A DNA stretch of 64,000 nt. It comes from Escherichia coli. Its GTDB lineage: Bacteria > Pseudomonadota > Gammaproteobacteria > Enterobacterales > Enterobacteriaceae. Within the stretch, counting starts at the first letter, position 1, and each line of letters begins with the position of its first letter. The stretch lies in the NCBI RefSeq assembly GCF_024700885.2, contig NZ_CP117016.1; one strand, given 5' to 3'. Positions 26,001 through 32,376 of the stretch are shown one piece after another. The translations under genes were made by a program, and so were the position numbers. Under the pieces are notes generated by a model. It searched no databases and had not been told where the DNA came from. It saw only the letters and a program-made list of their open reading frames with translations.

Positions 26001-26185
26001 ACGCCACAATTCAAACGATACCAGAGCTTCTTATTCAGACACGAGGCAATCAGACCGAAGTGGCGAGGATGCTTTCCTGCGCAAGAGGAACAGTGCTCAA
26101 GTACAACCGAGACAGCAAAGGCGAGCGTCACGTAATAGTTAACGGCGTCCTGATGGTCAAACAGGGCAAGAGGGGTAGACCATGA
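25997..26185 (+). CDS. ninH: NinH-like protein
   Basis: 62-aa ORF containing GNQTEVARMLSCARGTV, matching lambda NinH. Confidence 0.75.
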   Translation: MNATIQTIPELLIQTRGNQTEVARMLSCARGTVLKYNRDSKGERHVIVNGVLMVKQGKRGRP

Positions 26186-26805
26186 GACTCGAAAGTGTAG
26201 CTAAATTTCATTCGCCAAAAAGCCCGATGATGAGCGACTCACCACGGGCCACGGCTTCTGACTCTCTTTCCGGTACTGATGTGATGGCTGCTATGGGGAT
26301 GGCGCAATCACAAGCCGGATTCGGAATGGCTGCATTCTGCGGTAAGCATGAACTCAGCCAGAACGACAAACAAAAGGCTATCAACTATCTGATGCAATTT
26401 GCACACAAGGTATCGGGGAAATACCGTGGCGTGGCAAAACTCGAAGGAAATACTAAGGCAAAGGTACTGCAAGTGCTCGCAACATTCGCTTATGCGGATT
26501 ATTGCCGTAGTGCCGCGACGCCGGGCGCAAGATGCAGAGATTGCCACGGTACAGGCCGTGCGGTTGATATAGCAAAAACAGAGCAGTGGGGGAGAGTTGT
26601 CGAGAAAGAGTGCGGAAGATGCAAAGGCGTCGGCTATTCAAGGATGCCAGCAAGCGCAGCATATCGCGCTGTGACGATGCTAATCCCAAACCTTACCCAA
26701 CCCACCTGGTCACGCACCGTTAAGCCGCTGTATGACGCTCTGGTGGTGCAATGCCACAAAGAAGAGTCAATCGCAGATAACATTTTGAATGCGGTCACAC
26801 GTTAG
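26182..26805 (+). CDS. Q: Late-gene antiterminator Q (lambda type)
   Basis: 207-aa ORF MRLESVAKFHSPKSPMMSDSPRATASDSLSGTDVMAAMGMAQSQAG..., recognised as lambda Q including the Zn finger CRDCHGTG...CGRCKG. Confidence 0.95.
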   Translation: MRLESVAKFHSPKSPMMSDSPRATASDSLSGTDVMAAMGMAQSQAGFGMAAFCGKHELSQNDKQKAINYLMQFAHKVSGKYRGVAKLEGNTKAKVLQVLATFAYADYCRSAATPGARCRDCHGTGRAVDIAKTEQWGRVVEKECGRCKGVGYSRMPASAAYRAVTMLIPNLTQPTWSRTVKPLYDALVVQCHKEESIADNILNAVTR

Positions 26806-26847
26806 CGGCATGATTGCCACGGATGGCAACATCTTTACGGCATGATA

Positions 26848-26876
26848 TTGACTTTTTGAATAAAGTTGGGTAAATT
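26848..26876 (+). promoter_or_regulatory. Late promoter pR' with qut site
   Basis: TTGACT (26848) ... TAAATT (26871) directly downstream of Q, matching the lambda pR' region. Confidence 0.7.
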
Positions 26877-26882
26877 TGACCC

Positions 26883-27076
26883 AACGATGGGTTAATTCGC
26901 TCGTTGTGGTAGTGAGATGAAAAGAGGCGGCGCTTACTACCGATTCCGCCTAGTTGGTCACTTCGACGTATCGTCTGGAACTCCAACCATCGCAGGCTGA
27001 GAGGTCTGTAAAATGCAATCCCGAAACAGTTCGCAGGTAATAGTTAGATCCTGCATAACGGTTTCGGGATTTTTTA
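26883..27076 (+). ncRNA. 6S-like pR' leader transcript ending at tR'
   Basis: Lambda-like leader sequence ending in hairpin AATCCCGAAAC...GTTTCGGGATTTTTTAT (tR', ~27018..27076). Confidence 0.5.
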
Positions 27077-27079
27077 TTT

Positions 27080-27154
27080 GGGTCAGTCGTATAAAGGTCA
27101 TTACGGAAGGCTGTTAACCTTCTTATCGTGGTTCGAGTCCACGCTGTCCCGCCA
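27080..27154 (+). tRNA. tRNA-like gene, anticodon GTT (Asn-like)
   Basis: Hand-folded cloverleaf: acceptor GGGTCAG/CTGTCCC (one mismatch), anticodon stem GAAGG/CCTTC with loop CTGTTAA, T-arm CGTGG-TTCGAGT-CCACG, discriminator G and CCA. Confidence 0.5.
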
Positions 27155-27159
27155 AATAT

Positions 27160-27235
27160 GCTGGTTTAGCTCCAATGGTAGAGCAGTCGCCTTGTAAACG
27201 AATGGGTAGCGGTTCAAGTCCGTTAACCAGCACCA
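27160..27235 (+). tRNA. tRNA-like gene, anticodon TGT (Thr-like)
   Basis: Acceptor GCTGGTT/AACCAGC, canonical D-arm GCTC-CAATGGTA-GAGC, T-arm AGCGG-TTCAAGT-CCGTT, CCA end; anticodon stem has two mismatches. Confidence 0.5.
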
Positions 27236-27477
27236 TAACTGAGCCGTAGCCACTGACTATCCTGAATTCATCAGTGATAGTTACGCTGCGGCCTTCTACA
27301 CATGATATTCGTGAAAGCGGGTGGCAGGAGGTTGCGCTAACAACCTCATGCCGTTTTGCCCGTGCATATCGGTCACGAACAAATCTGATTACTAAACACA
27401 GTAGCCTGGATTTGTTCTATCAGTAATCGACCTTATTCCTAATTAAATAGAGCAAATCCCCTTATTGGGGGTAAGAC

Positions 27478-27801
27478 ATGAAGATGCCAGAAAAACATGA
27501 CCTGTTAGCCGCCATTCTCGCGGCAAAGGAACAAGGCATCGGGGCAATCCTTGCGTTTGCAATGGCGTACCTTCGCGGCAGATATAATGGCGGTGCGTTT
27601 ACAAAAACAGTAATCGACGCAACGATGTGCGCCATTATCGCCTGGTTCATTCGTGACCTTCTCGACTTCGCCGGACTAAGTAGCAACCTCGCTTATATAA
27701 CGAGCGTGTTCATCGGCTATATCGGTACTGACTCGATTGGTTCGCTTATCAAACGCTTCGCTGCTAAAAAAGCCGGAGTAGAAGATGGTGGAAATCAATA
27801 A
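27478..27801 (+). CDS. S: Holin S (class I, dual-start)
   Basis: [34 protein letters not shown]..., lambda S. Confidence 0.95.
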
Positions 27802-28261
27802 TCAACGTAAGGCGTTCCTCGATATGCTGGCGTGGTCAGAGGGGACTGATAACGGACGTCAGAAAACCAGAAATCATGGTTATGACGTCATTGTAGGCGG
27901 AGAGCTATTCACTGATTACTCCGATCACCCTCGCAAACTTGTCACGCTAAACCCCAAACTCAAATCAACAGCCGCCGGACGCTACCAGCTTCTTTCCCGT
28001 TGGTGGGATGCCTATCGTAAGCAGCTTGGCCTGAAAGACTTCTCTCCGAAAAGCCAGGACGCTGTGGCACTGCAACAGATTAAAGAGCGTGGCGCTTTAC
28101 CGATGATTGATCGCGGTGATATCCGTCAGGCAATCGACCGTTGCAGCAATATCTGGGCTTCACTGCCGGGGGCTGGTTATGGTCAGTTCGAGCATAAGGC
28201 TGACAGCCTGATTGCAAAATTCAAAGAAGCTGGCGGAACGGTCAGAGAGATTGAGGTATGA
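27785..28261 (+). CDS. R: Endolysin R (lytic transglycosylase)
   Basis: [42 protein letters not shown]..., lambda R. Confidence 0.95.
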
Positions 28262-28725
28262 GCAGAGTAACCGCGATTATCTCCGCTCTGGTTATCTGCA
28301 TCATCGCCTGTCTGTCATGGGCGGTTAATCATTACCGTGATAACGCCATCGCCTACAAAGAACAGCGAGATAAAAAAGTCAGTGAGCTGAAGCAGGCGAC
28401 CGCCACCATTACTGACATGCAGCAGCGCCAGCGTGCTGCTGATGCACTCGATGCTAAATACACGAAGGAGTTAGCTGATGCGAAAGCTGAAAATGATGCT
28501 CTTCGGCGCAAGCTTGATAATGGTGGTCGGGTGTTCGTCAAAGGAAAATGCCCTATGCCATCCTCAGCCGAAACCTCCAGCGCCTCCGGCATGGGCAATG
28601 ATGCCACCGTCGAACTCTCTCCAGTTGCTGGACGAAACGTTCTCGGTATCCGGGACGGAATCATCAGCGACCAAACAGCACTGAGAACGCTTCAGGAATA
28701 CATCAGGACGCAATGCCTTCGATGA
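28258..28725 (+). CDS. Rz: Spanin inner-membrane subunit Rz
   Basis: N-terminal TM segment plus coiled coil; lambda Rz-like. Confidence 0.9.
28478..28684 (+). CDS. Rz1: Spanin outer-membrane lipoprotein Rz1 (embedded in Rz, +1 frame)
   Basis: [21 protein letters not shown]... lipobox followed by a proline-rich segment, nested in Rz. Confidence 0.7.
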
Positions 28726-28899
28726 TAGCGATAATTTTACTCATCATCCTTCACATCTGGCTCTGTAGACAGGGTGGTGATCACTTCTGGAGTGAATCCA
28801 GATTAAACATCTCATTGCTGATGCTTGATATTGAGCATCTTGCGCGCGGTAAGGGGCTGCGTTGAGATAAGAGCCAGTTCATTACAAATACCAGGATTT

Positions 28900-28928
28900 A
28901 GCCTCGCATTCGCGGGGTTTTTTATTCC
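28900..28928 (+). terminator. Putative intrinsic terminator after lysis genes
   Basis: Hairpin CCTCGCATTCGCGGGG followed by TTTTTTATT. Confidence 0.4.
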
Positions 28929-28947
28929 CAACTCCATAGGTAATTTT

Positions 28948-29427
28948 ATGACCCAGCATATTGGCGTAAAACTGATTAACGCCTTTCCGATGACGAGACA
29001 GGCATATAACGATTTTCGTGGCTGGCAGCTTCCTGCCGGAGAAAACGGCGAGGACGAAGGCTATCTGGTTGAATATCTGGATGGCGGAAAACCTAACACC
29101 GATCGCTTTGATGGCTACGTTAGCTGGAGTCCAAAAGAAGTATTCGAAAAGGCTTATCGTCCGGTATCAGGACTAAGTTTCGGCCTTGCCATGGAAGCGT
29201 TAAAACAGGGCAAAAGTTTGCAGCGGGCAGGATGGAATGGGAAAGACCAGTTTGTTTATCTCGTGAAAGGGGAAAAATTAGCGTCTGCGTTGGGTTATGG
29301 CTTTGGCGAATATGTTGGCGAGCCAACTTTCAATGACACGCTTGTATTGAAAAACTCACAGAACCGCCTTGCTACATGGGTTCCATCCATTGGCGACCTG
29401 ATGGCTGAAGACTGGCAAATCATTTAA
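28948..29427 (+). CDS. Hypothetical late-region protein (DUF2829-like?)
   Basis: Track ORF 28825..29427; start moved to ATG at 28948 (MTQHIGVKL...) downstream of the terminator hairpin; C-terminal WNGK...YLV...TW.PS..DLMAEDW motif. Confidence 0.5.
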   Translation: MTQHIGVKLINAFPMTRQAYNDFRGWQLPAGENGEDEGYLVEYLDGGKPNTDRFDGYVSWSPKEVFEKAYRPVSGLSFGLAMEALKQGKSLQRAGWNGKDQFVYLVKGEKLASALGYGFGEYVGEPTFNDTLVLKNSQNRLATWVPSIGDLMAEDWQII

Positions 29428-29660
29428 CCATGTAGGCATTACAAAGCCTATCTACGGGTGGGCTTGATAATGAAACCGGAATTTATTCTGGGCAACCAGT
29501 TACGGCAGTACAGCGAAGCAACCCAAGCCAGAAAGTGGGGAAATAACACTGGCAGCCACTGAAAGATGAACCTCCTGCCTTATGGCAAAAAAGATTCTTT
29601 GTGGTGGCGGACTGATGGAAAGACATCCTAATCAAGCAACCACTCCACAGGGTCATAATT

Positions 29661-30032
29661 ATGAACGACCAGCAAATCGAAAAAGAAATCGTTGAGAAAG
29701 GCAAAACGGCACCGCGCGTTACGCCAGACCATATCGAAGGAATTATTGCTCAGGAGGCATATTTCACAGCAGAGGATGGTGCCTTTGGCAAAGCCATAAA
29801 AGATAAACATACTGGCGGAGAGGTAAACTACCAGCCGCACGAATCACTTTCTCTGCTGACGTTCTGCGTCCTGGTGCTGCGCAACGGCTTCACCGTCACC
29901 GGAGAGAGTGCCTGTGCAAGTCCGGAAAATTTTGATGCAGAAATTGGTCGGAAGATTGCCCGGCAGAATGCTGTAAACAAAATCTGGATGCTCGAAGGTT
30001 ACTTGCTGAAGCAGAAGCTAAGCGAACAGTAG
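29661..30032 (+). CDS. Hypothetical late-region protein (123 aa)
   Basis: ORF with RBS; no confidently recognised domain. Confidence 0.5.
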   Translation: MNDQQIEKEIVEKGKTAPRVTPDHIEGIIAQEAYFTAEDGAFGKAIKDKHTGGEVNYQPHESLSLLTFCVLVLRNGFTVTGESACASPENFDAEIGRKIARQNAVNKIWMLEGYLLKQKLSEQ

Positions 30033-30135
30033 TTATTACAAAAGCCATTCCCTACAGAGTGGCTTTGATAATGGCTTATACCCTACACGGGATAACTTAA
30101 CTGATATCCCTTTTAACGGATAAACGGAGCCAACA

Positions 30136-30378
30136 ATGGCAGAGATTATTCCCATGACTGAAGAACAGAAATTCCAGTTAGAGATTTACAAACTGGTCAT
30201 GAACCAGAACGCAGCCGCAGAAGAAGCATTTCAATTCATTGGCACTGACGAACTGAAGCTTGAGCTATTCAAAATTCACTTCCAGTCAGGCGGCGCTAAT
30301 TCGGATATCACGACCCGCACTATCGAAGCGGTGCGTAAATCGAAGGAAGCGTTAGACCTGTTCACTACCGGAGCATGA
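30136..30378 (+). CDS. Hypothetical small acidic protein (80 aa)
   Basis: ORF immediately upstream of the small terminase. Confidence 0.5.
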   Translation: MAEIIPMTEEQKFQLEIYKLVMNQNAAAEEAFQFIGTDELKLELFKIHFQSGGANSDITTRTIEAVRKSKEALDLFTTGA

Positions 30379-30407
30379 TGCTCAACCTGAAATAACAAAT
30401 AAGTGAG

Positions 30408-30902
30408 ATGAATATGGCAGCACCAAAGGGCAACCGATTTTGGGAGGCCCGCAGTAGTCATGGGCGAAATCCTAAATTCGAATCGCCCGAGGCGCTGTGG
30501 GCTGCTTGTTGTGAATACTTCGAGTGGGCTGATGATAACCCGCTATGGGAGGGTAAGGTATTTTCATATCAGGGAGAAATAATTAAGGCTAACGTTCCTA
30601 AGATGCGAGCCATGACTATTTCAGGATTGTGTACCTTCCTTGATATCACCAGGCAAACATGGGGAACCTTCCGGTCAATGGAAGGTTTTTCTGACGTCAC
30701 ATCACGAGCGGAAGACATCATCTACGACCAGAAATTCTCTGGCGCAGCCGCTGACCTTCTCAACGCTAACATCATCGCCCGTGATTTGGGCCTCAAAGAG
30801 CAGTCGCAAGTTGAAGACGTGACACCTGATAAGGGAGATCGCGATAAGCGGCGCTCTCGTATCAAGGAGCTATTCAACCGTGGAACTGGACGCGATTCTT
30901 GA
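30408..30902 (+). CDS. Terminase small subunit (P22 gp3-like)
   Basis: [38 protein letters not shown]..., P22 gp3 family; pac site expected within the gene. Confidence 0.85.
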
Positions 30903-32376
30903 TAACCTGAGCGACGAAGAGCAAATCGAATTGCTCGAGCTACTTGAAGAAGAAGAGAACTACCGTAACACACACCTGCTATATGAATTTACGCCATACA
31001 GCAAACAGCGTGAGTTCATCGACGCCGGACATGACTATCCAGAGCGATGTTTTATGGCTGGTAACCAGCTTGGTAAGTCATTTACTGGTGCTGCTGAAGT
31101 CGCGTTTCACCTTACAGGGCGTTATCCGGGCACAAAAGGCTATCCTGCTGATGGTAAATATGGCGGTGAGTGGAAAGGTAAGCGTTTCTATGAGCCTGTT
31201 GTCTTCTGGATTGGCGGCGAGACAAACGAGACGGTAACCAAAACGACTCAACGCATCCTGTGCGGTCGTATCGAAGAGAATGACGAGCCAGGCTACGGTT
31301 CCATACCTAAAGAAGACATCATTAGCTGGAAGAAGTCTCCTTTCTTTCCGAACCTTGTTGATCATCTTCTGGTTAAGCATCACACGGCTGATGGCGTTGA
31401 AGATGGCATTTCAATCTGCTACTTCAAGCCATACTCGCAAGGCCGTGCTCGCTGGCAGGGTGACACAATCCACGGCGTGTGGTTTGACGAAGAGCCACCA
31501 TACAGCATTTATGGCGAAGGTCTTACCCGTACCAACAAATACGGGCAATTCTCAATTCTGACGTTTACCCCGCTGATGGGGATGTCTGACGTTGTTACCA
31601 AGTTCCTGAAGAATCCCAGCAAGTCGCAGAAAGTGGTCAACATGACCATCTATGACGCTGAGCACTACACAGACGAACAGAAAGAGCAAATCATCGCATC
31701 CTATCCCGAACATGAGAGAGAGGCGCGTGCTCGCGGTATTCCTACGATGGGTAGCGGTCGAATCTTCCAGATACCGGAAGAGACGATTAAGTGTCAGCCG
31801 TTCGAGTGTCCTGATCACTTCTACGTCATCAACGCAATGGACTTCGGATGGGATCACCCACAGGCACATATCCAGCTTTGGTGGGATAAAGACGAGGACG
31901 TGATTTATCTTTCTCGCGTCTGGAAGGCCAAACAGAAGAAGGCGACAGAGGCATGGAGTGCTGTTAAAGCATGGAGCAAAAACACCCCTACGGCTTGGCC
32001 TCATGACGGGCATCAGCACGAAAAGGGAGGTGGCGCTCAGCTCAAGGAACAATACGCCGACGCTGGGTTCGACATGTTGCCAGATCATGCAACATGGCCT
32101 GATGGAGGTAATGCGGTCGAACCCGGGATAGCAGAGATACGCGACATGATGCTCGACGGTCGTTTCAAGGTATTTAACACCTGCGAGCCATTCTTTGAAG
32201 AGTTTCGCCTGTATCACCGCGATGAGAACGGGAAGATCGTCAAGCTAAACGACGACATCCTTTCTGCTGTTCGCTATGGCTACATGATGAGGCGTTTTGC
32301 AATACAGATGCGAGACATCAAAGATCCTAAAGAGATTGATTACTCAAGCTACAACATACCTTGCGGAGTTGGATGA
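30880..32376 (+). CDS. Terminase large subunit (P22 gp2-like)
   Basis: 498-aa ORF with Walker A-like GNQLGKS and a C-terminal nuclease domain; overlaps small subunit and portal genes. Confidence 0.9.

Follow-up and report, generated by a model that had tools for sequence, protein, structure and literature searches.

Two predicted immune-signal sponge genes and a DUF2560 gene in a late-operon cassette slot of a P22-like Escherichia coli prophage

The Tad2 protein of phage SPO1 contacts its ligand, glycocyclic ADP-ribose (gcADPR), mainly through W25, N26, W73, and D79, with minor adenine contacts from I63, T65, and T78, and binds no cyclic dinucleotide; HgmTad2 binds cyclic di-GMP (cGG) and cyclic GMP-AMP (cGAMP) via a long insertion at the position of the beta2-beta3 loop. 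In tests by others, four of five Tad2 homologues inhibited the Thoeris defense system. The discovery paper of Acb4 equated that family, with 1331 homologues, with PF13876. SPO1 Acb4 forms a pinwheel tetramer that binds four molecules of 3'3'-cGAMP, each in a pocket lined by K36, F48, E49, V56, Y57, F62, N63, I66, T70, and K81. All eight purified Acb4 homologues (8/8) bound 3'3'-cGAMP and none bound cGG, while 3'3'-cyclic di-AMP (3'3'-cAA) was bound only by homologues from phages of Gram-negative hosts. Tad2 and Acb4 are often fused, and one such fusion blocks both Thoeris and the cyclic oligonucleotide-based antiphage signaling system (CBASS); an Acb4-Tad2 fusion is described from Pasteurella phage Pm86, and Tad2-Sequestin and Acb4-Sequestin fusions are also known (bioRxiv 10.1101/2025.07.12.664507; Ab09 gp59, 10.64898/2026.06.04.730250). 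The subject of this report is a run of three + strand open reading frames (ORFs A, B, and C) between the Rz and small terminase (terS) genes of a P22-like (Lederbergvirus) prophage in an Escherichia coli chromosome (assembly GCF_024700885.2, contig NZ_CP117016.1), where a Tad2 domain and an Acb4 homologue are encoded side by side. "The window" denotes the whole stretch of DNA analyzed, 64,000 nucleotides, from whose first letter positions are counted. The analysis was computational throughout; it gives direct evidence on gene structure, cassette borders, family membership, and domain fusions and on whether the main Tad2 contacts are conserved.

Tad2 and Acb4 homologues between Rz and the small terminase

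Three ORFs of about 160, 123, and 80 amino acids (aa) had been predicted between Rz and terS from the sequence. They were recovered from the ORF list and the sequence with lengths of 159, 123, and 80 aa, as follows.

28948-29427, + strand: ORF A, 159 aa, ATG start
28948-29169, + strand: N-terminal domain (N-dom) of ORF A, residues 1-74, strongly conserved, beta-alpha-beta-beta-alpha
29170-29427, + strand: residues 75-159 of ORF A plus the stop codon, complete Tad2 domain (matches to PF11195 and SPO1 Tad2)
29246-29401, + strand: variable central Tad2 segment, residues about 100-152 (blastn and protein alignment against Huey and IME10)
29661-30032, + strand: ORF B, 123 aa, Acb4/Gp49/Sf6 gene 66 family (PF13876, E 8e-35)
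30136-30378, + strand: ORF C, 80 aa, DUF2560 (P22 ORF80, HK620 hkbM, Sf6 gene 67)

The original prediction had left all three genes unassigned, but each falls in a curated Pfam family, with bit scores against the curated cut-off of 78.3/25 for ORF A, 119.6/27 for ORF B, and 147.7/25 for ORF C. Homologous protein clusters numbered 2928, at least 8000, and 93, respectively. Since the Pfam matches lie far above the cut-offs and homologues are numerous, the three ORFs are genes rather than chance ORFs. On the basis of these matches, ORF A is assigned as a new member of the Tad2 family, ORF B as a new member of the Acb4 family, and ORF C as a known DUF2560 protein. A search of NCBIfam returned nothing significant, PF21825 (Sequestin) matched none of the three proteins at E values up to 1, and PADLOC found no match for any of them, as expected for anti-defense genes. 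It is considered probable that the locus consists of two immune-signal sponge genes in tandem, together with the DUF2560 gene, in a cassette slot of the late operon.

In ORF A, PF11195 ("Thoeris anti-defense 2-like", formerly DUF2829) matched residues 77-159 with an E value of 6e-22, covering profile positions 2-73 of 73. The best match among solved structures was SPO1 Tad2 (8sme, 8wje) over the full domain length, with an E value of 3e-26, followed by ModTad2 9eib and Tad2 8v3e (E 2e-18), while SptTad2, HgmTad2/AcrIIA7 (8kbi), and pdAcrIIA7 (9kzr) matched much more weakly. These matches bear out the resemblance to DUF2829 that had been suspected from a C-terminal WNGK...DLMAEDW motif, which is present as W96-N97-G98-K99 and D150-L-M-A-E-D-W156. 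All four main gcADPR contacts are kept, W25, N26, W73, and D79 of SPO1 Tad2 corresponding to W96, N97, W144, and D150. The beta2-beta3 loop has the short length of that of SPO1 in an ungapped alignment, and the insertion of the HgmTad2/SptTad2 type (between beta2 and beta5) is missing. Given this short loop and the lack of cyclic dinucleotide binding by SPO1 Tad2, the ligand of ORF A is expected to be of the ADP-ribose type rather than a cyclic dinucleotide. By homology, the Tad2 domain would be tetrameric and would capture the ADP-ribose-derived signals of Toll/interleukin-1 receptor (TIR) enzymes (1''-3' gcADPR and possibly related molecules), so that Thoeris-type effectors would never be switched on.

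ORF B had been counted among the unassigned genes, yet it is a homologue of Sf6 gene 66, which gives its Pfam family its name (74% identity between the products). PF13876 ("Phage protein (N4 Gp49/phage Sf6 gene 66) family") covered residues 20-120 of ORF B with profile positions 1-82 of 82. Against the solved Acb4 (9e4w), the sequence alone scored an E value of 0.006, and a 53-sequence profile scored 1.5e-6. Of the residues lining the 3'3'-cGAMP pocket, F48, F62, and I66 are kept in ORF B as F77, F91, and I95, and two changes are conservative (V56 to C85 and N63 to D92). Like its SPO1 relative, ORF B would be a tetramer and would sequester CBASS cyclic dinucleotides, namely 3'3'-cGAMP and probably 3'3'-cAA. 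The residues lost are the guanine-specific ones, which would at least fit the broader cAA binding reported for the Gram-negative homologues.

Both genes were found to exist as mosaic alleles. Phages Huey and IME10 encode ORF A homologues of 166 aa in which N-dom is nearly identical and the ends are identical but the central Tad2 segment differs; their allele is 7 residues longer. In blastn, 29246-29401 had no match in Huey/IME10 though both flanks match. In ORF B, too, the ends are constant and the middle (residues about 36-64, about 29766-29852) varies when the window, Sf6/Huey, and other alleles are compared. These regions shape the ligand pockets in solved relatives, and an exchange of specificity through these central segments is a reasonable inference, and the ORF A/ORF B mosaics may show natural exchange of sponge specificity.

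Several observations weigh against this interpretation. The oligomeric states, ligands, expression timing, and phenotypes proposed here were deduced computationally. In ORF A, the minor adenine-side contacts of SPO1 Tad2 are changed (I63 to L134, T65 to N136, and T78 to G149), and because of these changes its ligand may differ from that of SPO1 Tad2; a Tad2 clade that binds His-ADPR (histidine-ADP-ribose) exists. The alignment of ORF B to the solved Acb4 spans 42 residues only, E49, Y57, and T70 are replaced by T78, A86, and I99, and the alignment does not reach K36 and K81. For ORF C, sequence and fold searches gave no informative homologue. Sponges are, moreover, usually described as early genes, so that placement among late genes is atypical.

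If the sponge interpretation holds, adjacent anti-Thoeris and anti-CBASS sponge genes are carried by temperate phages of the P22 group and not only by large lytic phages. The homologues are labeled "DUF2829 domain-containing" and "Gp49 family" in RefSeq E. coli entries and "anti-CRISPR protein" in the record of phage Huey (PQ850609.1; 3248-3748 and 3983-4363). As these labels hide the likely sponge function, the annotations merit correction.

The N-terminal domain of ORF A

Known families account for most of what had been noticed at this locus, apart from N-dom, which is the part of ORF A most deserving of follow-up and offers a defined target for binding assays. N-dom had no Pfam match at E values up to 1, no match in NCBIfam, and no solved homologue. 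An AlphaFold2 model gave the beta-alpha-beta-beta-alpha fold, mostly beta and thus unlike the alpha-helical Sequestin domain of 60-80 aa, with a mean predicted local distance difference test score (pLDDT) of 94 and a predicted template modeling score of 0.79. Across 113 full-length ORF A homologues, conservation is higher in N-dom than in the Tad2 half. In the Tad2-linked set (a 47-sequence alignment), 20 of 76 N-dom positions are invariant (G6, K8, N21, P29, G38, L40-V41-E42-Y43, D45-G46-G47, N50, G56-Y57, S59-W60-S61-P62, and Y70), and 8 more are near-invariant. Across all architectures, R17, N21, R24, W26, E32, D36, D45, G46, G47, and N50 are at least 90% conserved.

A profile search with N-dom against 1.84 billion representative proteins retrieved 2611 clusters at E values up to 0.001. 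In the best 149 representatives, the Pfam partners were Tad2 (54), PF21825 (Sequestin; 37), PF13876 (Acb4; 12), and the Acb2/Tad1 hairpin (1). A local census of the same 149 agreed with this, giving 43 N-Tad2 and 22 N-Sequestin proteins, about 9 with Acb4, and about 9 triple fusions. Triple fusions were seen in the orders N-dom-Sequestin-Tad2, Acb4-N-dom-Sequestin, and N-dom-Tad2-Sequestin. No other long region was present in 9/149, and 42 had an unrecognized partner of at least 40 residues; several of these partners proved to be divergent Tad2 or frameshifted sequence, and one appeared RyR-like by eye. In a 354-aa relative outside the window (P0247), the N-dom-Tad2 gene is split between the domains by an HNH + AP2 (homing-endonuclease-like) segment. 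Judged by these architectures, N-dom is a separate module that recurs alongside sponge domains from no fewer than four or five families. The argument from fusion to known sponges, from Tad2 and Acb4 to Sequestin, has been used by others with Pfam families only; N-dom would have escaped that survey because only Pfam families were searched.

A Foldseek comparison with viral models matched N-dom to a ryanodine-receptor-domain protein of Yersinia phage TG1, through which RyR Tad (Pectobacterium phage vB_PatP_CB1 gp68) was identified as a relative. By hhalign, N-dom aligned with residues 1-65 of gp68 over 65 columns with a probability of 96.1%, an E value of 3.1e-9, and 31% identity. In the crystal of RyR Tad, the N-terminal domain forms a strand-swapped (domain-swapped) dimer interface. 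Most likely, N-dom either dimerizes the assembly or binds a further ligand.

The first of these roles, in which N-dom would act only as a dimerizing or avidity scaffold that staples sponge oligomers together and has no ligand of its own, is plausible but can be held only tentatively. It agrees with the crystal structure of the homologous domain and with the report that residues 1-86 of gp68 alone are inactive against type I Thoeris. It is also favored by the linkage within ORF A, where only about five residues join N-dom to the first Tad2 helix, the helix that mediates the SPO1 Tad2 tetramer, and by the occurrence of N-dom N-terminal, internal, or C-terminal to varied sponge domains, as might be expected of a generic connector. 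However, a scaffold is not obviously needed, because Tad2, Acb4, and Sequestin oligomerize alone; the 20 invariant and 8 near-invariant positions exceed the conservation usual for a simple interface; and stand-alone N-dom genes exist.

The second role would make ORF A a two-headed sponge, with N-dom binding a second immune signal as a further sponge family, and is possible though doubtful. The same reasoning from fusion to known sponges brought others to Sequestin, and N-dom is joined to Tad2, Sequestin, Acb4, Acb2/Tad1 hairpin, and RyR-type domains, with triple fusions arranged like beads on a string. The nine representatives without another long region also speak for it, as do the polar and aromatic residues that are at least 90% conserved across architectures, most of which the inactive N-domain of RyR Tad lacks. 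Against it stand that same inactivity and the domain-swapped interface of gp68, and the two "stand-alone" N-dom genes that were checked each sit on a short contig or at a contig end. Stated more broadly, N-dom could represent an undescribed, widespread family with a counter-defense role of its own, either as a sponge for another signal or as a shield from sponge-sensing defenses, a proposal that is likewise speculative. If it is true, N-dom could be used for "guilt by fusion" discovery of sponge families among the approximately 40 unknown partner regions.

Cassette slot, neighboring genes, and expression

Module borders were defined by blastn comparison with Sf6, HK620, IME10, and Huey and by junction alignment with Sf6 and HK620. 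By these comparisons, the late operon has a slot for cassettes between Rz and terS, with the following elements.

28880-28888, + strand: left CATTACAA(A) repeat (D8), left border of the ORF A cassette (Sf6/HK620 junction alignment, blastn)
28900-28925, + strand: terminator-like G+C hairpin with T-run, 5' end of the cassette (-14 kcal/mol, z -1.9)
29438-29471, + strand: hairpin J2, 10 nt past the ORF A stop codon, right border of the ORF A cassette (-18.3 kcal/mol, z -2.95)
29437-29627, no strand: non-coding spacer, approximately 190 bp, between J2 and ORF B (193 phage records)
29592-29571, - strand: terminator-like site in the spacer (scan; annotated terminator in the phage L record)
30035-30072, + strand: hairpin J3, 2 nt past the ORF B stop codon (-20.6 kcal/mol, z -4.2)

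Compared with Sf6, the window carries ORF A as an insertion between direct CATTACAA repeats, the second of which begins J2 as its 5' arm; Sf6 and SEN22 have ...GTTCATTACAAAGCCTATCTACGGGTGGGCTTGATAATG... as the empty site at this position. The inserts of the window and HK620 both start after CATTACAA with the same hairpin, HK620 matching the window up to 28925, and then diverge into ORF A versus hkbK/hkbL. A second insert, missing from HK620, spans 29628-30031 and comprises ORF B and its hairpin-adjacent end. Between the two inserts, the spacer is 89-99% identical in 193 phage records, among them those of P22, L, HK620, and Sf6 and of certain non-Lederbergvirus lambdoid phages (mEp234 and HK446). 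Elsewhere the slot holds rha, orf25, and antisense pid (P22), hkbK/hkbL (HK620), or orf118, orf129, and dec (phage L), and SEN22 also has other cargo there. The spacer was considered as a relic of rha, which was rejected, as the homologous P22 stretch is non-coding, starting at the stop codon of rha. Movement of the cassettes by an IS200/IS605-like element at TTAC found no support; the transposon of SEN22 looks IS3-type by eye and is inserted elsewhere.

J2 and J3 are related and share one two-tier fold, AUUA-CA-AAGCC...GGCUU-GA-UAAU, without a T-run. Two matches to the pattern were found in the window, where 0 were expected, and it is present in Sf6, HK620, IME10, and Huey. A scan of viral contigs gave 120 loci, mostly chance A+T-rich sequence, with 27 real instances comprising 8 distinct sequences; one variant has two compensatory changes and another has two pairs broken, too little for a claim of covariation. 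With one exception, the recovered J3-type hairpins were 3' of an Acb4 gene; those of J2 type were 3' of Rz, gene 65, Tad2, hkbL, or Rha genes. In an Rfam search of 26500-31000, only the two tRNAs reached threshold, and the hairpins and spacer matched no RNA family. A recombination joint, an RNA 3' end, and a processing site are candidate roles for J2/J3.

Of 5426 complete E. coli genomes, 12 carried the full three-gene arrangement with at least 80% coverage, and 2753 carried parts of it. In two of the 12, strains MLI114 and O166:H15 JNE21-009, the 1751-bp query was 100% identical. The closest isolated phage is Huey, followed by HZ41 and IME10.

The slot is bounded on the left by the holin, endolysin, and Rz genes and on the right by the small terminase gene, followed by those of the large terminase and portal. 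The surrounding features are listed below.

26182-26805: Q-like gene
27080-27154: tRNA-Asn(GTT), in the late leader between the Q-like and holin genes
27160-27235: tRNA-Thr(TGT), in the late leader between the Q-like and holin genes
27478-27801: holin gene
28258-28725, + strand: Rz i-spanin, left flank (PF03245, E 2.6e-29)
about 28478-28684, + strand: Rz1, embedded in Rz (ORF list)
28713-28865, + strand: 50-aa ORF with a hydrophobic N terminus, Sf6 gene 65 homologue (ORF list)
30408-30902, + strand: small terminase, P22 gp3 type, right flank (PF16677, E 8.6e-31; phrog_606)

The 50-aa ORF (28713-28865) overlaps the Rz stop codon, and this stretch is kept in most P22-like records; in SEN22, the gene 65 homologue is interrupted by an insertion sequence that is IS3-type by eye (no family search run). 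Sf6 has a tRNA-Thr at the position equivalent to that of tRNA-Thr(TGT). As listed, the large-terminase ORF starts with GTG at 30880 and shares 23 nt (30880-30902) with the end of terS.

The only + strand promoter-like site upstream was found at 26848-26876, just past the Q-like gene and ahead of the two tRNA genes and the lysis genes. From Rz to ORF C, the promoter scan gave no promoter-like site except one inside ORF B. The terminator-like hairpin at 28900-28925 lies 23 nt upstream of ORF A. From this hairpin and the lack of a promoter-like site before ORF A, late, antitermination-dependent expression was inferred, and ORFs A, B, and C would be made only under Q antitermination, at a high level, just 5' of the head genes. 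Triggers of TIR systems have been reported among structural proteins, with escape mutations in a capsid vertex protein and activation linked to a tail fiber locus. The position just before the head genes suggests that the sponge antidote may be made together with the structural trigger.

ORF C matched PF10834 (DUF2560) with an E value of 1e-43 and is a small acidic four-helix protein. P22 had been thought to have different small genes at this position, which is wrong for ORF C: it is identical to P22 ORF80 at 79/80 residues (99%). The DUF2560 family is small, with 93 clusters, and all hits with a named source come from Enterobacterales; the gene is found beside terminases of various types, also in certain lambdoid phages outside Lederbergvirus (mEp234, HK446, and mEpX1). 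In the window, the small gene that follows DUF2560 elsewhere (P22 ORF59c, HK620 hkbN, Sf6 gene 68) is absent from 30379-30407, and terS comes directly next. An accessory role for ORF C, perhaps in counter-defense, is only a guess.

It is improbable that the three genes are ordinary accessory genes for lysis, packaging, or the virion, a role for which ORF C would be the foremost candidate. Their placement between the lysis and packaging genes would fit, ORF C is kept next to terminases of several types and directly before terS in many phages, and the slot of phage L holds the head-decoration gene dec. However, ORFs A and B both belong to sponge families and are present or absent among P22-like phages, where unrelated cargo takes their place, and the occurrence of ORF C with different terS types and in some lambdoid phages outside Lederbergvirus shows that it does not depend on a single packaging system. 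The P22 mutant named as an orf25-orf80 deletion forms plaques and lysogenizes, the source text being silent on whether orf80 itself was removed. Of the late anti-defense or virion-associated functions envisaged in the original prediction, the former fits ORF A (Tad2) and ORF B (Acb4), and no evidence of a virion role was found for ORF A, B, or C; the homology detected was to anti-defense sponges and not to packaging or lysis accessory proteins.

That ORFs A and B are AcrIIA7-like anti-CRISPR proteins is very improbable: the Huey labels say so, a DUF2829 protein had initially been described as AcrIIA7, and ORF A weakly matches pdAcrIIA7 (9kzr; E 1.6e-5 over 34 residues), which is reported to bind tracrRNA, but ORF A is far nearer to SPO1 Tad2 over the full domain, pdAcrIIA7 requires a head of two long helices and is inactive without it, where ORF A has the confidently modeled N-dom fold instead, ORF B is in the Acb4 family, and E. 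coli has type I CRISPR-Cas systems and is not known to carry type II-A Cas9.

Comparison with known systems

The sponge interpretation of ORFs A and B, preferred here, rests on their likeness to described proteins, from each of which they also differ. Residues 75-159 of ORF A align with residues 4-88 of the 89 of SPO1 Tad2 (Gp34.65; PDB 8SME/8SMF/8SMG, 8WJE) without gaps and with 41/85 identical (48%), sharing the short beta2-beta3 loop and W25, N26, W73, and D79. ORF A differs in its extra 74-residue N-terminal domain, in L134, N136, and G149 at the adenine-side contacts, and in its setting, an E. coli host and a late operon; its binding is putative. The DUF2829/Tad2 core is also common to pdAcrIIA7 (9KZR) and HgmTad2 (8KBI), but ORF A has neither the two-helix head and extended insertion of pdAcrIIA7, which acts on tracrRNA, nor the long cGG/cGAMP-binding insertion of HgmTad2.

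With SPO1 Acb4 (9E4W), ORF B aligns over the core from beta1 to alpha4 and keeps F48, F62, and I66, whereas it has a variable insert of approximately 30 residues (roughly 36-64) and replacements at E49, Y57, and T70. As in Pm86 and the Sequestin fusions, a single phage locus pairs an anti-Thoeris module with an anti-CBASS module. Here, however, Tad2 and Acb4 are neighboring separate genes in separate cassettes, and the partner fused to Tad2 is the non-Pfam N-dom.

N-dom shares with the N-domain of RyR Tad the motifs PMT, GYLV.Y, and Y.SWSP..VF, which look structural from the alignment, and both domains sit before a sponge domain. In contrast, R17, N21, R24-G25-W26 (RGW), E32, and D45-G46-G47..N50 are near-invariant in the N-dom type and absent from gp68, whose partner is a ryanodine-receptor-like domain. 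The locus as a whole corresponds in position to the rha-orf25-pid-orf80 late-region moron slot of P22, which occupies the same slot with the same conserved spacer and ends in ORF80, the counterpart of ORF C. The cargo differs, the window having putative sponge genes on the late strand where P22 has the antisense pid with its own weak promoter, and ORF59c/hkbN of P22/HK620 is without a counterpart in the window.

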